Positions 6,938 to 11,096 of a stretch of DNA of 13,465 bases are shown here, piece by piece; positions within the stretch are counted from its first letter, which is position 1, and every line of letters starts with the position of its first letter. The position numbers and the translations under genes were made by a program. Under the pieces are notes generated by a model that saw nothing but the letters and a program-made list of their open reading frames with translations, searched no databases and was not told where the DNA came from. The DNA is from a virus, in UHGV virus genome UHGV-2124687; one strand, given 5' to 3'.

Positions 6938-7270
6938 ATGAAACCAACCTACTGGGGACTAGCAGCACAACTCGCTAAGGCTGAGAGCAAGTACAGGGAA
7001 TTGGTAGCGGAGAATGGACATGCGCGTAGACGACATATATTTATCCGTGCTCTGGCGGTTTTGATTCTTGAGCATAGTGGCGGCCGTATAAACTGGCGTG
7101 GTGCGATGGAAGACGCCGGGCACTACCCGGCGCATCAATTGCCATTATTTGCCAGAGATCACTCCCCAGGAATGTTGGCCAACTCCAAAAGCAAATGCCA
7201 AGAAAATAAGTCCAGACCAACGCTCAATCCCTTCCGCCATTATGAGCATCGCTATTCCTATGCCTGCTAA
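6938..7270 (+). CDS. Hypothetical nin-region protein; C-terminal third is probably not native
   Basis: ATG 6938 lies after GGGAAAAACAGC. From about 7114 the ORF reads through a minus-strand terminator hairpin and then antisense to a well-formed membrane-protein gene. The real coding part therefore probably ends, or was replaced, near 7100-7145. Confidence 0.35.
   Translation: MKPTYWGLAAQLAKAESKYRELVAENGHARRRHIFIRALAVLILEHSGGRINWRGAMEDAGHYPAHQLPLFARDHSPGMLANSKSKCQENKSRPTLNPFRHYEHRYSYAC
7114..7132 (-). terminator. Hairpin 12 nt after the stop of the 7145-7339 gene (weak U-tract)
   Basis: CGCCGGG-cacta-CCCGGCG is a perfect 7-bp GC-rich stem. On the minus strand only TCTTCC follows it. Confidence 0.35.
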
Positions 7271-7339
7271 TGGAATACCTAATATGATGAAGAGGAGCAC
7301 CGAACAGATAACTTGGGTTGTCGTGGGTTGATGAGACAT
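7145..7339 (-). CDS. Small two-pass membrane protein (64 aa), orphan
   Basis: The product is MSHQPTTTQVICSVLLFIILGIPLAGIGIAMLIMAEGIERWSGLIFLAFAFGVGQHSWGVISGK, with two clear hydrophobic helices. SD AGGTG lies 5 nt upstream. A consensus TATAAT (minus strand, 7385-7380) sits in an AT-rich upstream region. The gene is oriented against the phage rightward operon. Confidence 0.6.
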   Translation of the reverse strand: MSHQPTTTQVICSVLLFIILGIPLAGIGIAMLIMAEGIERWSGLIFLAFAFGVGQHSWGVISGK

Positions 7340-7541
7340 GTTAACACCTTTAATGAAGGAAACCGTCTGGGCGCAATTTATTATAGTTTTTATATATTTC
7401 CATTAAGTAACTTTGCTTTTGTTATTTACTGTGCCTTCCATGGGCGCGGAAAGCATATTAAAAAAAGCTACTCATATCTTCAATTCACCAATTTTGGTGG
7501 GGCAATAGTTGCGCTGGAGCGTACAACTTACCATACAAGCG

Positions 7542-7560
7542 NNNNNNNNNNNNNNNNNNN
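7542..7560. other. Run of 19 N (unresolved or masked bases)
   Basis: Read directly from the sequence. Anything spanning it cannot be interpreted. Confidence 1.
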
Positions 7561-7569
7561 CGGCAATAC

Positions 7570-7590
7570 AGGCCTCCTTGGAGGCCTTTT
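7570..7590 (+). terminator. Intrinsic terminator just right of the first N-run
   Basis: A-GGCCTC-cttg-GAGGCC-TTTT. What it terminates lies in or before the N-run and is unknown. Confidence 0.5.
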
Positions 7591-7623
7591 CGATGCTTAG
7601 AGTGTATAGGTGGTGCTGGTTAA

Positions 7624-7728
7624 CTGAAGCAATGGTGAGGGATAATCTGCCGTAGTTGTGTCAGCAGAAACAAATGGCAGCTTAATAAAATATTGCTAAT
7701 TAAACCCGGTACGGCAGGTTTTCTTTTT
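7624..7728 (+). repeat. Copy A (decayed) of a ~100-nt terminator-ended non-coding element
   Basis: By my hand alignment, copy A matches copy B (10926-11029) at about 76 of 94 columns (gcaatRgtgaggg..aatct...ttgtg.cagcagaaa.aaa...taataaaa...tgctaatt.aacccg.tacggc.ggtttt). Its terminal hairpin has 2 mismatches in the 5-bp stem. Confidence 0.6.
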
Positions 7729-7752
7729 CACTTCATCAATCTCTGCTACGAT

Positions 7753-8268: not shown

Positions 8269-8447
8269 TTTAGTATGGTGCTGCCCGGAGCTTCCTGTTA
8301 ATCACTATGTACTCCCGTTTAGCCACGTCATTTTAGATTTGGTTTTGGTCCGCTATGAGCGAGGAGCAGAAGTTCGTAATTCCTTTAGACAATCCTCCAG
8401 GGAGGTTATGATAAAATATACAGCCATAAAGCCTATAGGGAGTGGAC

Positions 8448-8822
8448 ATGACATTGTTTGAGGAATGTAAGGAACTGCTCAAGACAGATTTTAATGTTGT
8501 GGAAGGGGATGATTTGAGCGCGATAATGGATATTTTTCATCAATATCCATGGCATAGCGGTAATCTCAGATGGTCGGAAATGGACTTCAGCGATTATGAA
8601 CTTAGTCATGATATGTTTAACGGGGGCGGTTTAGGCAATGAAACTGTATTTGTCATAGCGGATGATGCGAATGTACCCGTGTTCAGAACCCATCTACAAC
8701 TCATTGTCGATAATATCTACGATGTCATCGCCATATCACCTAACCTATTTATTTTTAATGATAAAATAATGATTAAACCTTTATTCCCTCATAATTATAT
8801 ACGGTTTGGTCTGCGAAAGTGA
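8448..8822 (+). CDS. Hypothetical acidic cytoplasmic protein (124 aa), very AT-rich gene
   Basis: ATG 8448 with GGGAG 5 nt upstream; the track start at GTG 8442 is less likely. The product is MTLFEECKELLKTDFNVVEGDDLSAIMDIFHQYPW...VFVIADDANVPVFRTHLQLIVDNIYDVIAISPNLFIFNDKIMI. It has no TM segment or signal peptide. It looks like an immunity protein, but I do not recognise the family. Confidence 0.55.
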   Translation: MTLFEECKELLKTDFNVVEGDDLSAIMDIFHQYPWHSGNLRWSEMDFSDYELSHDMFNGGGLGNETVFVIADDANVPVFRTHLQLIVDNIYDVIAISPNLFIFNDKIMIKPLFPHNYIRFGLRK

Positions 8823-9091
8823 TGAGCAGAAATACTGACCAGCTCCCCGTTGTTCAACTAAGACTTGTTATTGACAACTTCCGCTAATGGCACGGAGCGG
8901 ACAGGCCAAGCGACTTGTCAGGTCGGCTATGAGCGAAAAGCTGACATTAATTAAACCACAGGAAAGCTACCTGTCCAGAGAGAATGGTCAGGGGAGCAAA
9001 CGGTGAGCTCCATTAAGTTGTCGCTGCTTTTCTCGGGCTGTCAGCGCAAGCCGGAGATGGGCAGAAAAAAAGTCGTGTCTGGATCGCTAAA

Positions 9092-9587
9092 TCAAAGTGT
9101 CATCATCATTTCATGCCATGCCATTCCACCGTGGTCCGATTCTGACGGTTTGATGTACTGGTAACCAAAATGGGCGTACAGATCGACGTGGCGGTCTTTG
9201 CACATCAGGTGAATGGTTTTTTTGTTCATTGCTATCATGCGCGTCACAAATTCACGCATCAGTAATGATGAATATCCTTTGCCCTGGTAATCAGGGTGCA
9301 CCACGACAGACATAATCACTGCATTGGGTGCATCCGGATCGTGACCTACCAGTTCTTTGAACTCTTCGTCGGACATCACGACTTCCCACGCACAGCCCGC
9401 ATTAATGAAACCAATAACGTCACCGTTCAACTCCATGCATANNNNNNNNNNNNNNNNNNNNNNNNNNNNNNNNNNNNNNNNNNNNNNNNNNNNNNNNNNN
9501 NNNNNNNNNNNNNNNNNNTGTGATTTCAATATCATAGCAACGATCAACATCGGCATCAGTGGCCTGACGGAATACAGGGGTAGACAT
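9092..9587 (-). CDS. GNAT-family N-acetyltransferase (AANAT-like), interrupted by an N-run
   Basis: The C-terminal part contains the acetyl-CoA motif (VIMSVVVHPDYQGKGYSSLLMREFV) and ends HGGMAWHEMMMTL. The best N-terminus is ATG 9587 (MSTPVFRQATDADVDRCYDIEIT) with GAGG 7 nt upstream, not the track start at 9556. The two halves are out of frame by 1 across the 77-N run, so the run is not length-exact. Confidence 0.75.
9442..9518. other. Run of 77 N inside the GNAT gene
   Basis: Read directly from the sequence. 79 nt separate the last readable N-terminal codon from the first C-terminal codon. That is not a multiple of 3. Confidence 1.
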
Positions 9588-9723
9588 AGCCTTGCCTCTT
9601 CAGATTCATTTGTTTGGAATTATACTATCTTTTTTTTATCCTGCTTTCGCTGCATTTTATTCAACACTAAAATGTAGAATATTCATTTATTGTGTTTTAA
9701 ATAATATCTGAGAAAGAAGAATC

Positions 9724-10695
9724 ATGATGTCAACGTTGCGCAAGATCGATCTGAATTTATTGCTTATATTCGATTCTCTTTATCGGCATGGAAGCGTGAC
9801 GGAGGCCGCCAACGAACTGGCACTAAGCCCATCCGCACTAAGTCATGCGCTCAATCGCTTACGTACATCACTGGACGATCCCTTATTCGTGCGCACTGGT
9901 GGAAGCATGGTGCCCACGTCAAAAGCTGAAAGCATTGCAGCAAGTATTTCTGCCGCTCTAGGAAGTCTCTCGTCCTGCCTGCATGAGCCAGAACACTTTG
10001 AGCCGGAAAAAAGCCGGGAGAGTTTTACCTTTGCTGCTACGGACTACACTGCCGCCGCTATCCTGCCAAGCTTGATCGCGAGGGTTAACAGCCTTGCGCC
10101 GGGCATTACCATTAAGCTTATCTACTCACGCGATTTTAACGCCGACGAAGATTTGCTTTCAGGCAAAGTTGATTTCGCCCTTGGCTTTGAAGAAGAGCAG
10201 AAAGCCCCACGGCGCGGCATAGAGTCGATTACTTGCTTTACTGATGATTACGTGGTTGCAGTGCGACGCGGTCATCCTAATATCCAGGATTCCCTTACCC
10301 AAGAGCGTTATCTGAGCGCCGGACACGTAGTGGTGCGTCCATGGTTGGAAAGACGGGGGGGGATCGACCGTTATCTGGAAAGTCAGCAGGTACGTCGCCG
10401 GGTCGTTGTTGAATTGCCAAGCCTGATGATTGCCCCAATTATCGTTTCGAATACTGATCTGGTTATCACGCTTCCCAAGCGGGGGATCTCATCAGTTTTT
10501 GATATGAAAAATCTGGTGGTGTTTGCTCCCCCGTTCCCGACACCACAGTACATTTTGAAAGCCTATTACAGCCCGGCACTCGGTAACTCGCCAGGGCATA
10601 TATGGATGAGGGGGCAAATTTTGCAGGTTTGTGATCCGCTAAATCCGGCGATGCCAGTAATTGCTGTCGATACAAATTCTGGTACAGAAAGGTAA
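9724..10695 (+). CDS. LysR-family transcriptional regulator
   Basis: 323 aa. The N-terminal HTH is IDLNLLLIFDSLYRHGSVTEAANELALSPSALSHALNRLR, followed by a typical LysR substrate-binding region. It is divergent from the GNAT gene across a 136-bp AT-rich spacer. That spacer contains the dyads ATTC-N9-GAAT (9604-9620) and GAATATTC (9677-9684). Confidence 0.9.
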   Translation: MMSTLRKIDLNLLLIFDSLYRHGSVTEAANELALSPSALSHALNRLRTSLDDPLFVRTGGSMVPTSKAESIAASISAALGSLSSCLHEPEHFEPEKSRESFTFAATDYTAAAILPSLIARVNSLAPGITIKLIYSRDFNADEDLLSGKVDFALGFEEEQKAPRRGIESITCFTDDYVVAVRRGHPNIQDSLTQERYLSAGHVVVRPWLERRGGIDRYLESQQVRRRVVVELPSLMIAPIIVSNTDLVITLPKRGISSVFDMKNLVVFAPPFPTPQYILKAYYSPALGNSPGHIWMRGQILQVCDPLNPAMPVIAVDTNSGTER

Positions 10696-10925
10696 TCCGA
10701 TCATCTTTACTGCTCTCTAACTAGCTATCAGTTTAATGAATTCCTAGTAATTTAAAGCAGGGAGCGTTCATTATGTGACTCATGTCGAAGCTTAGTGTCA
10801 GGGAGAGAGGTAGTAAGACTTCGAAATTGTTGGACGTCTGCTTCTGGCACTATCCAGCCCTTTGCTGATTGAAAAAGACGAATGAAAGTTGGATACGCTT
10901 TACCTCATGGTCACACAGTTGCTCA

Positions 10926-11029
10926 CTGATGATGCAATAGTGAGGGCGAATCTCTCGGATTGTGCCAGCAGAAAGAAACTGCCGCATAATAAAACACTGC
11001 TAATTCAACCCGCTACGGCGGGTTTTTTT
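10926..11029 (+). ncRNA. Copy B (intact) of the repeated element: candidate small RNA or 3'-UTR module ending in a strong terminator
   Basis: This is the ~100-nt conserved block shared with copy A. It ends in CCCGC-tacg-GCGGG plus T7 (11009-11029). An internal AGCAG...CTGCT pairing is possible. No ORF is present. It lies 68 nt upstream of the LexA box. I identified no promoter, so it may be a 3' end rather than an independent gene. Confidence 0.35.
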
Positions 11030-11096
11030 GTTTTACTCCTGACAGGAAATTAACAATTTGTGCTCTTAAAACGTTGATCATTTCCGTGCATGAGTA

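Follow-up and report, generated by a model that had tools for sequence, protein, structure and literature searches.

Non-essential genes lie between the replication genes and Q in the nin region of lambda, P22, L and epsilon34, where the backbone is tightly packed (PMC8022706) and the region as a whole has been called "typically mosaic" (PMC2629481). The extra genes found there, or morons, carry their own terminators, differ in composition from their surroundings and are missing from close relatives. Here we describe the corresponding region of UHGV virus genome UHGV-2124687, a stretch of 13,465 nucleotides that we refer to as the window and whose first letter is position 1. This window corresponds to the early-right arm of a lambda-like prophage of Citrobacter, and its positions 7105-11036 are probably a hypervariable slot built stepwise from at least six modules, two of which are bounded by short palindromes. 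The slot shares all of these moron features, but unlike the described regions it lies upstream of dinI, in place of a C5 DNA methyltransferase gene, and its content includes genes on the minus strand, a regulator/enzyme pair (LysR and GNAT) captured from a chromosome and a putative orphan immunity gene of a contact-dependent growth inhibition (CDI) system. The palindromic boundaries on two of its modules are a further difference, since we found no description of such boundaries in the moron literature searched.

A second group of loci with which the slot can be compared are the antiviral hot spots of P2 and P4 (Rousset et al. 2022, PMC9122126), small loci between conserved genes with very high turnover of content. 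In that study, the mechanism of exchange was stated to be unknown and proximity to cos was suggested; the order rule for palindromes reported below is not mentioned there, and the word "palindrom" does not occur. The likeness extends to content, as the slots of relatives hold restriction-modification (R-M) systems and a nuclease, palindrome-bounded cassettes elsewhere hold PD-T7, defence reverse transcriptase (DRT), Thoeris and DarTG systems, and one palindrome-bounded example occupies P2 "moron position 2". Unlike the P2/P4 hot spots, the slot is not next to cos, and the cargo of the window has no recognised defence system. The SopE cassette (Mirold et al. 2001, as summarised in PMC7380047) is a third precedent: a moron with constant flanks, known from lambdoid prophages as well as from P2 moron position 2, for which a modular exchange linking unrelated phage families was proposed.

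The interval between orf69 and dinI

To delimit the slot, we used flanking genes identified by Pfam, NCBIfam and PHROG assignments and compared the window with 17 close relatives, found among viral contigs scanned with the DUF1627 protein, and with two relatives from the genome collection. The closest relatives in the genome collection were Citrobacter prophages; E. coli genomes and isolated phages matched the window only in short pieces. Homology to the window ended at 6754-7016 in every relative and resumed at 10940-11094 in those that reached far enough. All 14 close relatives with both flanks carried an orf69-dinI interval of 2.5-5.5 kb (4.2 kb in the window), and compared pairwise these intervals mostly had a common fraction of less than 0.2. 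Conserved phage genes, namely orf69 and DUF1627 on the left and dinI and orf60 on the right, enclose unrelated content, as is expected of a hot spot. Each module of the window was absent from most of the 14 relatives and has a GC content of 40-47% as compared to 51% for the backbone, both of which are properties of morons.

From left to right, the slot of the window holds a small membrane-protein gene (module 1), a methyltransferase remnant, a ydcA-type moron (module 2), orf65 (module 3), a cdiI cassette (module 4), the GNAT/LysR unit (module 5) and a second methyltransferase remnant ahead of dinI. The slots of relatives are filled differently. Locus L021 has an intact 705-codon open reading frame (ORF) matching C5 DNA methyltransferase, L010 and L023 have type II R-M systems, L017 has a dATP/dGTP pyrophosphohydrolase and L004, a decayed prophage, has a NucC/PD-DExK-like nuclease. 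This decayed relative lies in Citrobacter sp. Cu233 (L004 13918-15387) and ends in chromosomal efflux genes; its 489-aa DUF6602/NucC-like nuclease gene comes directly after ydcA/orf65 modules that it has in common with the window. The shortest versions of the slot were found in L003 (824 bp, with a decayed dinI) and in E. coli WEM25 (L006), where a P gene, a methyltransferase remnant and dinI follow one another. The first-pass annotation of the window, made from its letters and ORFs, had predicted an empty site in which about 7100 is joined to about 10926-11097. We found this junction in no relative, and it was absent from 3 genome loci, 28 viral loci and 101 E. coli records. Because the slot is occupied, mostly by unrelated DNA, in all 14 relatives, the window is not an insertion into an empty site; the slot is a permanently filled hypervariable locus and the window is one of its alleles.

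The edges of the slot are also visible in gene organization and composition. From cro (3511) to orf110 (6938-7270), all genes are on the plus strand and either overlap by 4 nt or are separated by no more than 13 nt. Between 7105 and 11036 there are gaps of 120-443 nt, two minus-strand genes (7145-7339 and 9092-9587) and strong hairpin/T-run terminators at 7570-7591 and 11007-11028, the second of which has degenerate copies at 7703-7724 and 7983-8004. Coding density is 0.99 over 3511-7104 versus 0.62 over 7105-11036 and 0.83 after the slot, and GC content is 45.0% over 7100-11036 versus 51.1% in the flanking backbone. This agrees with the first-pass annotation, which had described tight, co-oriented packing up to about 7100 followed by a loose stretch with genes on both strands and individual terminators. 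The left boundary that it placed at about 7100 was confirmed, as window 7105-7541 is 94.7% identical to Kluyvera chromosome and the homology of orf110 to relatives ends at 6917-7016; likewise, the right edge near 11036 is a real homology breakpoint, and both N-runs (7542-7560 and 9442-9518) fall inside the stretch. Two of its descriptions need qualification. Packing to the right of the stretch had been called tight again; genes do run on the plus strand from dinI onward, but 4-8-nt overlaps resume only from 11803, and gaps of 121 and 127 nt flank orf60. Similarly, the stretch is low in GC, but 8270-8820 had been singled out as very AT-rich when the cdiI module has 40% GC and the actual extreme is the spacer between GNAT and LysR, with 28%. 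Low GC is also found outside the cargo, in the immunity region (1201-3510, 42%). With the block not common to relatives and its composition discontinuous with the flanks, the description of the stretch as heterogeneous accessory cargo, and not core phage DNA, holds.

Boundary palindromes and the GNAT/LysR unit

The palindrome at the module boundaries has the form GTCCGCT-N10-AGCGGAC, is 22-27 nt long and has two variants, of which type 1 carries the loop TGGCAC and type 2 is the inverted unit with the loop GAGCGA. The window contains three full copies (8348-8371, 8879-8902 and 8922-8945) and a left half-copy (10837-10850). Only 0.30 full copies were expected, and none of 200 shuffles reached three. 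Modules 4 and 5 have all four of their edges on palindromes, such that each cassette reads type 2, gene or genes, type 1, and neighboring cassettes abut as type 1, an 18-nt linker and type 2.

To see how general this arrangement is, we collected at least 120 IMG/VR contigs with an exact type-1 match, a sample that may be redundant by phage lineage. Among the 120 viral loci listed, adjacent palindromes were ordered as type 1 followed by inverted type 2 in 38 of 39 pairs; a further 169 pairs were 250-5000 nt apart, and of the 88 in which both members could be typed, 74 ran from type 2 to type 1. The linker, which is partly conserved, had a length of 18 nt in 26 of 33 cases. When identical cassettes were found in different contexts, homology ended within -2/+1 nt of the palindrome edges. 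The 82 cassettes recovered fall into 58 sequence families of 32-51% GC, with the largest ORF facing one way in 23 and the other way in 35. Their proteins include defence proteins (PD-T7-1, PD-T7-5, PDC-S33, PDC-S66, DRT, ThsB, DarT/DarG, Tmn and TIR) and proteins of metabolic type (SDR, EAL, TerC and NUDIX). Among the 120 loci listed, the flanks were P2-like in 23, dinI in 16 and a lambdoid tail-fibre assembly gene in 22. Only three records of isolated phages contained a palindrome pair.

Outside of viral contigs, a search of 5426 complete E. coli genomes, which single 22-nt copies escape, found the 86-nt paired unit in 1922 of them; each has it at 1-4 places, without annotation. One of these units separates the tail fibre assembly gene of a P2-like prophage from the sheath gene, at the site known as P2 moron position 2 (PMC3573123). 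In L105 and L110 (6168-13917), nine typed palindromes occur within 8 kb between tail-fibre genes and pqiAB/rsmF, one in each intergenic gap; L105 has one further match, untyped, among its tail genes, and its core chromosomal flank is free of matches. A palindrome pair is also present in the Citrobacter chromosome near a racemase gene (L095-L100). In the literature searched, which was limited, we found no description of the printed motif or of palindrome-flanked prophage cassettes.

Three side observations concern the form of the palindromes. The IMG/VR loci L231 and L223 contain tandem ATGTCCGCT-N10-AGCGGACAT palindromes about 18-20 nt apart with the loop variants TGGGGGC and TGACCCA, and the family may be broader than types 1 and 2. 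In type-2 palindromes from 33 viral loci, the third stem position was T·G in 13, C-G in nine and T-A in one; since on this strand T·G can pair in RNA only, as U·G, a possible role of transcript structure is weakly hinted at. Single-strand folding of the paired unit showed modest stability (z = -1.8 to -3.0).

The shorter of the two palindrome-bounded modules is the cdiI cassette (module 4, 8347-8902, plus strand), in which cdiI (8448-8822) lies between a type-2 palindrome (8347-8370) and a type-1 palindrome (8876-8902). The CdiI product matches PF24172 over its full length (E = 5e-35), and we saw no cdiA toxin gene beside cdiI and no toxin match among the upstream ORFs. By these features, cdiI is a predicted orphan CDI immunity gene. 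The cassette (8352-8902) is 98.5% identical to the IncN-like E. coli plasmid NZ_CP032203, where it is likewise an orphan, and the homology of the copy in L111 stops at -1/+1 nt relative to the edges of the palindromes. Immediately before the first type-2 palindrome, window 8300-8346 (...GTTTAGCCACGTCATTTTAGATTTGGTTTTG) looks like a decayed type-1 right arm followed by an 18-nt linker, which suggests a trace of a former upstream cassette boundary.

The GNAT/LysR unit (module 5, 8876-10850, both strands) consists of a type-1 palindrome, a 19-nt linker, a type-2 palindrome (8921-8944), the GNAT gene (9092-9587, minus strand, 163 aa, containing the second N-run), a 136-nt spacer, the LysR gene (9724-10695, plus strand, 323 aa) and the left half of a type-1 palindrome. 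Pfam matches support the divergent pair that had been read from the letters, with PF00583 for GNAT and PF00126 plus PF03466 for LysR. Chromosomal orthologues, for which the first-pass annotation had proposed a search, are present in Citrobacter contigs of up to 1.9 Mb and in one Salmonella contig (L095-L101). These are also divergent, with a spacer of 137 nt and 84-88% nucleotide identity, and the Citrobacter pairs sit in conserved metabolic neighborhoods among EamA, major facilitator superfamily (MFS), alcohol dehydrogenase (ADH) and SDR genes. Exact copies of the LysR protein are widespread, with 183 index blocks, and window 9519-10850 is 100% identical in L105, L110 and L111, which represent other genomic contexts. 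We found the protein in three settings, whose common unit is window 8876-10850. The first is this prophage. The second is past the tail-fibre end of another lambdoid prophage, adjoining chromosomal pqiAB/rsmF (L105 and L110). The third, in L111, has the order cdiI, a 6.7-kb type ISP R-M system with an IS3 element, GNAT/LysR, an S24 peptidase, dinI and tail fibre genes.

Because the lengths of the N-runs are not faithful, reading frames across them are not trustworthy: near-identical loci have 18 nt where the window has 19 and 73 nt where it has 77. At the first masked site (7542-7560), L008 has the 18-nt palindrome ATATAGGGATTCCCATAT. The second run is 4 nt longer than the real 73 nt, and we rejected GNAT as a frameshifted pseudogene, since the gene is intact with 163 codons in L106 and the apparent frameshift is an artefact of masking.

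Comparison of loci with and without the GNAT/LysR unit resolved its junctions. An exact empty site was found only for this 1.96-kb unit, in L084 and L092, with a clean junction. With the junction marked by a slash, the empty site in L084 reads ...TCCGCTAATGGCAC/TAACCAGCCC..., followed by a methyltransferase remnant, and the filled site in the window reads ...TCCGCTAATGGCAC/GGAGCGGAC, linker, type 2, GNAT, LysR, TCTGCTTCTGGCAC/TATCCAGCCC.... The right junction, TGGCAC/TA[AT]CCAGCCC, is common to the window, L008, L084 and L092, which have four different left halves. Filled sites with further inserts were found as well. In L107 (4699-9156), a variant of this prophage, 4.5 kb with two IS5-type transposase genes lies between cdiI and GNAT, and in L111 (2473-9157) there is a 6.7-kb insert with a type ISP R-M gene split by the IS3 element; each insert lies between two type-1 palindromes. 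The window palindrome at 8876-8902 is a hybrid of the two copies that flank these inserts, and the switch from one to the other occurs inside TGGCACG. These comparisons show that the GNAT/LysR unit is polymorphic by gain or loss and that its site is defined in both the occupied and the empty form.

A further allele is present in the IMG/VR contig L008, which is ∼99.8% identical to the window over 1-8250 and 10853-13465 and has a 252-bp fragment of an IS3-family orfA where the window has 8903-10834. The fragment (L008 11601-11853) comes directly after the cdiI palindrome; its left end reads TGAATCCCC..., and the start of orfA, MSG followed by a stop and RYTEEFKIAAVKQV, is stop-broken.

Possible routes of exchange

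Direct observation covers the boundaries of the modules, their junctions in filled and empty form, the palindromes that are hybrids and an order rule that extends over many prophages. From these we infer the recombination reaction. The content of the slot would have been assembled stepwise, with two kinds of short shared sequence marking the joints. The first kind is the 3' end of the methyltransferase gene together with a 22-nt terminator, which also closes ydcA; at these joints, ydcA, orf65-cdiI and dinI would be reordered among phages. The second kind is the type-1 and type-2 palindromes. GNAT/LysR, a presumed copy of a chromosomal locus, would have entered as a unit running from the center of one type-1 palindrome to the center of the next (8894-10850) and would have landed in the type-1 site that closes the cdiI cassette. 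The reaction would be a recombination at or near the type-1 center between the resident site and a site on the incoming DNA. As to how this would proceed, a generic route by hairpin breakage or short-homology annealing, using host or phage recombination functions, is somewhat more likely than a dedicated recombinase or transposase; relaxed recombination has been reported for phage Rad52-type proteins (PMC3945230). A bolder reading, which we judge less likely than not, is that the palindromes are recombination sites of an undescribed cassette-exchange mechanism that would operate at prophage hot spots and on some plasmids by crossover at the type-1 center, with the capture of GNAT/LysR as one event.

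In a lysogen, the modules would act as independent transcription units insulated by terminators, which are clear for ydcA, dinI and the remnants. CdiI would be expected to protect against the CDI toxin of a neighbor, and DinI to damp RecA/SOS. Lytic transcripts from pR must cross several terminators to reach Q, and antitermination is therefore implied.

Several observations weigh against this account. The junctions are compatible with a break at the type-1 center, but the left one is resolved to 7 nt only. The state of L084 could instead arise from that of the window by deletion between half-sites, and L008 represents a replacement and not simple absence, its cdiI allele being only ∼91% identical. 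The sample behind the order rule may be redundant, as stated, and L105 holds exceptions to the rule, with DUF2513 between a type-1 and a type-2 copy and one gene between two type-1 copies. We found neither a consistent target-site duplication or flanking tetranucleotide at the cassette ends nor a recombinase or transposase gene in or beside the slot. With respect to expression, promoter-like sites for the modules numbered 15 as compared to 16.5 expected in shuffles, and no N-type antiterminator was recognized in the window. Lastly, PADLOC gave only a marginal AbiEi match (E = 0.004) for the six cargo proteins of the window and nothing convincing, and a defence role for this cargo was rejected.

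One way in which palindromes could direct exchange is by a dedicated cassette system, in which a trans-acting enzyme recognizes them and carries out exchange as in integrons or palindrome-associated transposable elements (PATEs). The enzyme could be a tyrosine recombinase or an HUH/Y1 transposase of the IS200/IS605 kind or of the kind associated with repetitive extragenic palindromic (REP) sequences (RAYT). Such a system is conceivable, and we regard it as doubtful. It would account for the strict order and orientation of both variants with a fixed 18-nt linker, for cassette ends that are precise to 1-2 nt across contexts and for the joining of four left halves at one point. It would also fit the resident site, whose right half is degenerate, with only ∼14 nt of imperfect homology (11/14) on one side and none on the other. 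The left and right ends of IS200/IS605 elements are hairpins, and the hairpins at both ends of the cassettes, which differ mainly in the loop, resemble them. However, no such transposase was seen in the loci, and no candidate enzyme gene was found next to any palindrome array examined. The absence of a consistent flanking tetranucleotide or target duplication, the exceptions to the order rule and the two orientations of cassette genes (23 versus 35) also argue against a dedicated system.

Integron arrays share with the palindrome arrays their cassettes of one to few genes separated by a structured, imperfectly palindromic site, an exchanged unit that runs from mid-site to mid-site and entry at a resident site with an unrelated far half. 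We nonetheless rejected an integron, as no integrase domain and no intI were found among the proteins of 3054-13077 or of the arrays of L105, L111 and L232. The sites read AAYGTCCGCT-N10-AGCGGAC, with no RYYYAAC/GTTRRRY core and no GTTRRRY at the 3' end, and so they were rejected as attC sites as well; the missing core also counts against a dedicated system. Unlike in integrons, the genes here occur in both orientations and appear to have promoters of their own, the site combines two palindromes of 22-27 nt through a linker of 18 nt and the arrays are inside prophages. The SopE cassette was likewise rejected as an instance of the same system, since the SopEPhi and ZC-S1_prp sopE loci contain no type-1 or type-2 palindrome, even with 3 arm mismatches.

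It may be instead, and we hold this with similar reserve, that the palindromes are ordinary repeats, a low-copy family like REP sequences or bacterial interspersed mosaic elements (BIMEs) in AT-rich acquired intergenic DNA. Modules would then move by RecA or Red through long flanking homology in the cdiI, dinI and methyltransferase-remnant regions, and the coincidence of palindromes with boundaries would be a by-product. As in REP/BIME, we are dealing with short, GC-rich, intergenic, imperfect palindromes in pairs of alternating orientation, and the pair near the racemase gene shows that they also occur in a bacterial chromosome. Lambda bio transducing phages provide a case in which palindromes served as breakpoints for the pickup of chromosomal DNA, through REP-mediated illegitimate recombination. 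Further in favor of ordinary repeats, the patch that differs between the window and L008 starts at the edge of the 91%-identical cdiI allele, as flanking homology predicts. Phage Rad52-type recombinases are reported to handle short, diverged homology, recombining with defective prophages (PMC3945230), and the SopE cassette is thought to have spread between P2-like and lambdoid phages by homologous recombination (PMC7380047). On the other hand, the palindromes are unrelated in sequence to the E. coli PU consensus and are concentrated in prophage cargo. The paired unit occurs at only 1-4 places per E. coli genome as compared to hundreds of REPs, with the reservation that single 22-nt copies escape the search, and the nine typed copies in L105 occupy 8 kb of cargo at the prophage end, the chromosomal flank having none. 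Moreover, long homology leaves unexplained how the palindrome-center junctions and the 1-2-nt ends were first formed.

The remaining modules, the backbone and the significance of the slot

The left edge of the slot falls within orf110 (6938-7270, plus strand), a chimeric or truncated phage ORF whose 3' part overlaps an antisense cargo gene. It is of phage type only in its first 20-60 codons: relatives share codons 1-28, phrog_26126 matches residues 8-60, and tblastn gave no orf110 homologues in phage records. The antisense gene belongs to module 1 (7105-7541, minus strand), which consists of a small membrane-protein gene (7145-7339, 64 codons, two transmembrane segments) whose 3' end overlaps orf110 and an AT-rich upstream region. 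The Kluyvera match of this module is to the K. ascorbata chromosome adjoining the suf operon (L102; 94.7% nucleotide identity), and a second match, at 71.5%, is in another lambdoid prophage (L103), where the gene is also antisense after early genes. The first N-run and a strong intrinsic terminator on the plus strand (7570-7591; hairpin of -14.1 kcal/mol, z = -2.3) follow.

Methyltransferase remnants occur twice, both on the plus strand. Remnant A (7612-7730) holds the last ∼9 codons of a phage C5 DNA methyltransferase gene and a degenerate terminator. Remnant B (10913-11034) follows the resident half-site (TATCCAGCCC...) within 10851-11034 and has an intact terminator at 11007-11028. The two form a direct repeat of 115 nt with ∼80% identity and read in frame as ...LCQQK[QE][MT]AA-stop, broken by stops; copy A reads ...LCQQKQMAA-stop with an upstream stop. 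Intact methyltransferase genes that end in ...CGNAVPPPFAEALVRANLPELCQQKQIAA and a stop were found in eight viral loci (617-673 aa from the first Met) and in L021. Most other IMG/VR copies of the element keep 9-142 codons with the same end, dinI lies at a fixed distance of 109-110 nt after the element in 45 of 63 copies, and for the remnant stretch of E. coli prophages the PGAP annotation is that of an incomplete DNA methyltransferase. By these comparisons, the 115-nt direct repeat is best read as the decayed 3' ends of the C5 methyltransferase gene with its terminator. The repeat could also be taken for a small regulatory RNA gene or a cis-acting RNA, as the element, which many prophages conserve upstream of dinI, has a terminator at its end and gave weak Rfam matches to TarB and isrK at 10942-11035. 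This is very unlikely, as the Rfam scores of 20.7-25.7 bits (E = 0.3-0.7) compare with gathering scores of 50-80, the same sequence encodes the C-terminal end of an intact methyltransferase in at least nine loci, remnants have anywhere between 9 and 142 codons and the folds of the two window copies differ, copy A having lost the terminator hairpin (z = -0.85).

Module 2 (7690-8004, plus strand) is a ydcA-type moron with a coding sequence at 7783-7950 for a 55-aa Cys-rich protein that is predicted to be secreted. It is flanked by two copies of the AACCCGCTAYGGCNGGTTTT terminator (7703-7724 and 7983-8004), matches NF007463 at 91.7 bits (the curated cut-off is 93) and phrog_6000 and is 89-92% identical in E. 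coli and Citrobacter prophages. Module 3 (8005-8346, plus strand) carries orf65 (8071-8268), which has a weak match to phrog_660, and is common to L002, L004, L024 and L084 at 87-93%. In L084 (5912-9462), an E. coli-type prophage, the ydcA, orf65 and cdiI modules are reordered as orf65-cdiI, remnant, ydcA, remnant, dinI, with copies of the remnant/terminator at the joints.

On the right, the dinI unit (11035-11406, plus strand) comprises a LexA box (11097-11116), the coding sequence (11135-11371) and a terminator (11383-11406). DinI matches PF06183 (E = 2e-25), and the LexA box, TACTGTATAAAAAAACAGTA, is a perfect CTGT-N8-ACAG that, as read from the sequence, lies between promoter-like hexamers. 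The first-pass annotation had left dinI outside the stretch, and the gene would itself be a further autonomous unit under SOS (LexA) control; in L003 it has decayed to fragments.

In the backbone to the left, a CI-type repressor (3054-3461, minus strand) is followed on the plus strand by Cro (3511-3783), YdaT (3780-4259), DUF4222, a DnaT/HTH replication protein that is O-like (4511-5605), a lambda P-like protein (5379-6044), DUF1627 (6058-6720) and orf69 (6717-6926). After dinI, also on the plus strand, come orf60, a Rem-like ORF of 60 aa, a RecA-dependent nuclease/DUF968 (11803-12129), RusA (12122-12481) and a Q-like antiterminator (12478-13077). Inside the replication-protein gene, at 4878-4982, promoter-like TTGACG/TTGACC hexamers accompany a long inverted repeat, which gave a spurious Rfam MIR5284 match (E = 0.15); together they look like origin iterons. 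The left arm (1-3000) is poorly annotated: the ten ORFs to the left of the repressor gene had no PHROG match, and no N-type antiterminator was recognized among them.

The first-pass annotation had read the stretch as one 3.9-kb foreign block that entered a compact nin region in a single event, a view suggested by the sharp change of gene density, strand and composition at ∼7105 and ∼11036 but already contradicted and highly improbable, given that the nearest relatives differ by module (Kluyvera chromosome, E. coli prophages, an IncN-like plasmid and Citrobacter/Salmonella chromosomes, at 85% to 98.5% identity), that L008 differs from the window in 8352-10850 only, that L084 has the same modules in a different order and that no relative has the predicted empty junction. 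What remains of that view is heterogeneous accessory cargo with real edges; the block is nested and stepwise, its modules have separate affinities and it did not arise by one insertion into an empty site.

Taken by itself, the cargo block is ordinary moron accretion in a lambdoid prophage, and what deserves attention are the palindromes at its boundaries, together with a chromosomal locus whose capture could be resolved. The empty site, the filled site and the filled site with further inserts form a finely resolved natural series of a prophage gaining a chromosomal regulator/enzyme pair. The palindromic boundary element, with its strict order rule, brackets dozens of unrelated cassettes across prophage families, many of which encode known anti-phage systems. 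A defined 22-27-nt site with a mapped crossover would open the rapid exchange at hot spots, an open question in PMC9122126, to simple genetics. If the proposed cassette exchange is true, this mechanism would load and swap defence and accessory genes in enterobacterial prophages that are unrelated to each other, at the lambdoid nin region, at the lambdoid tail-fibre end and at P2 moron position 2.

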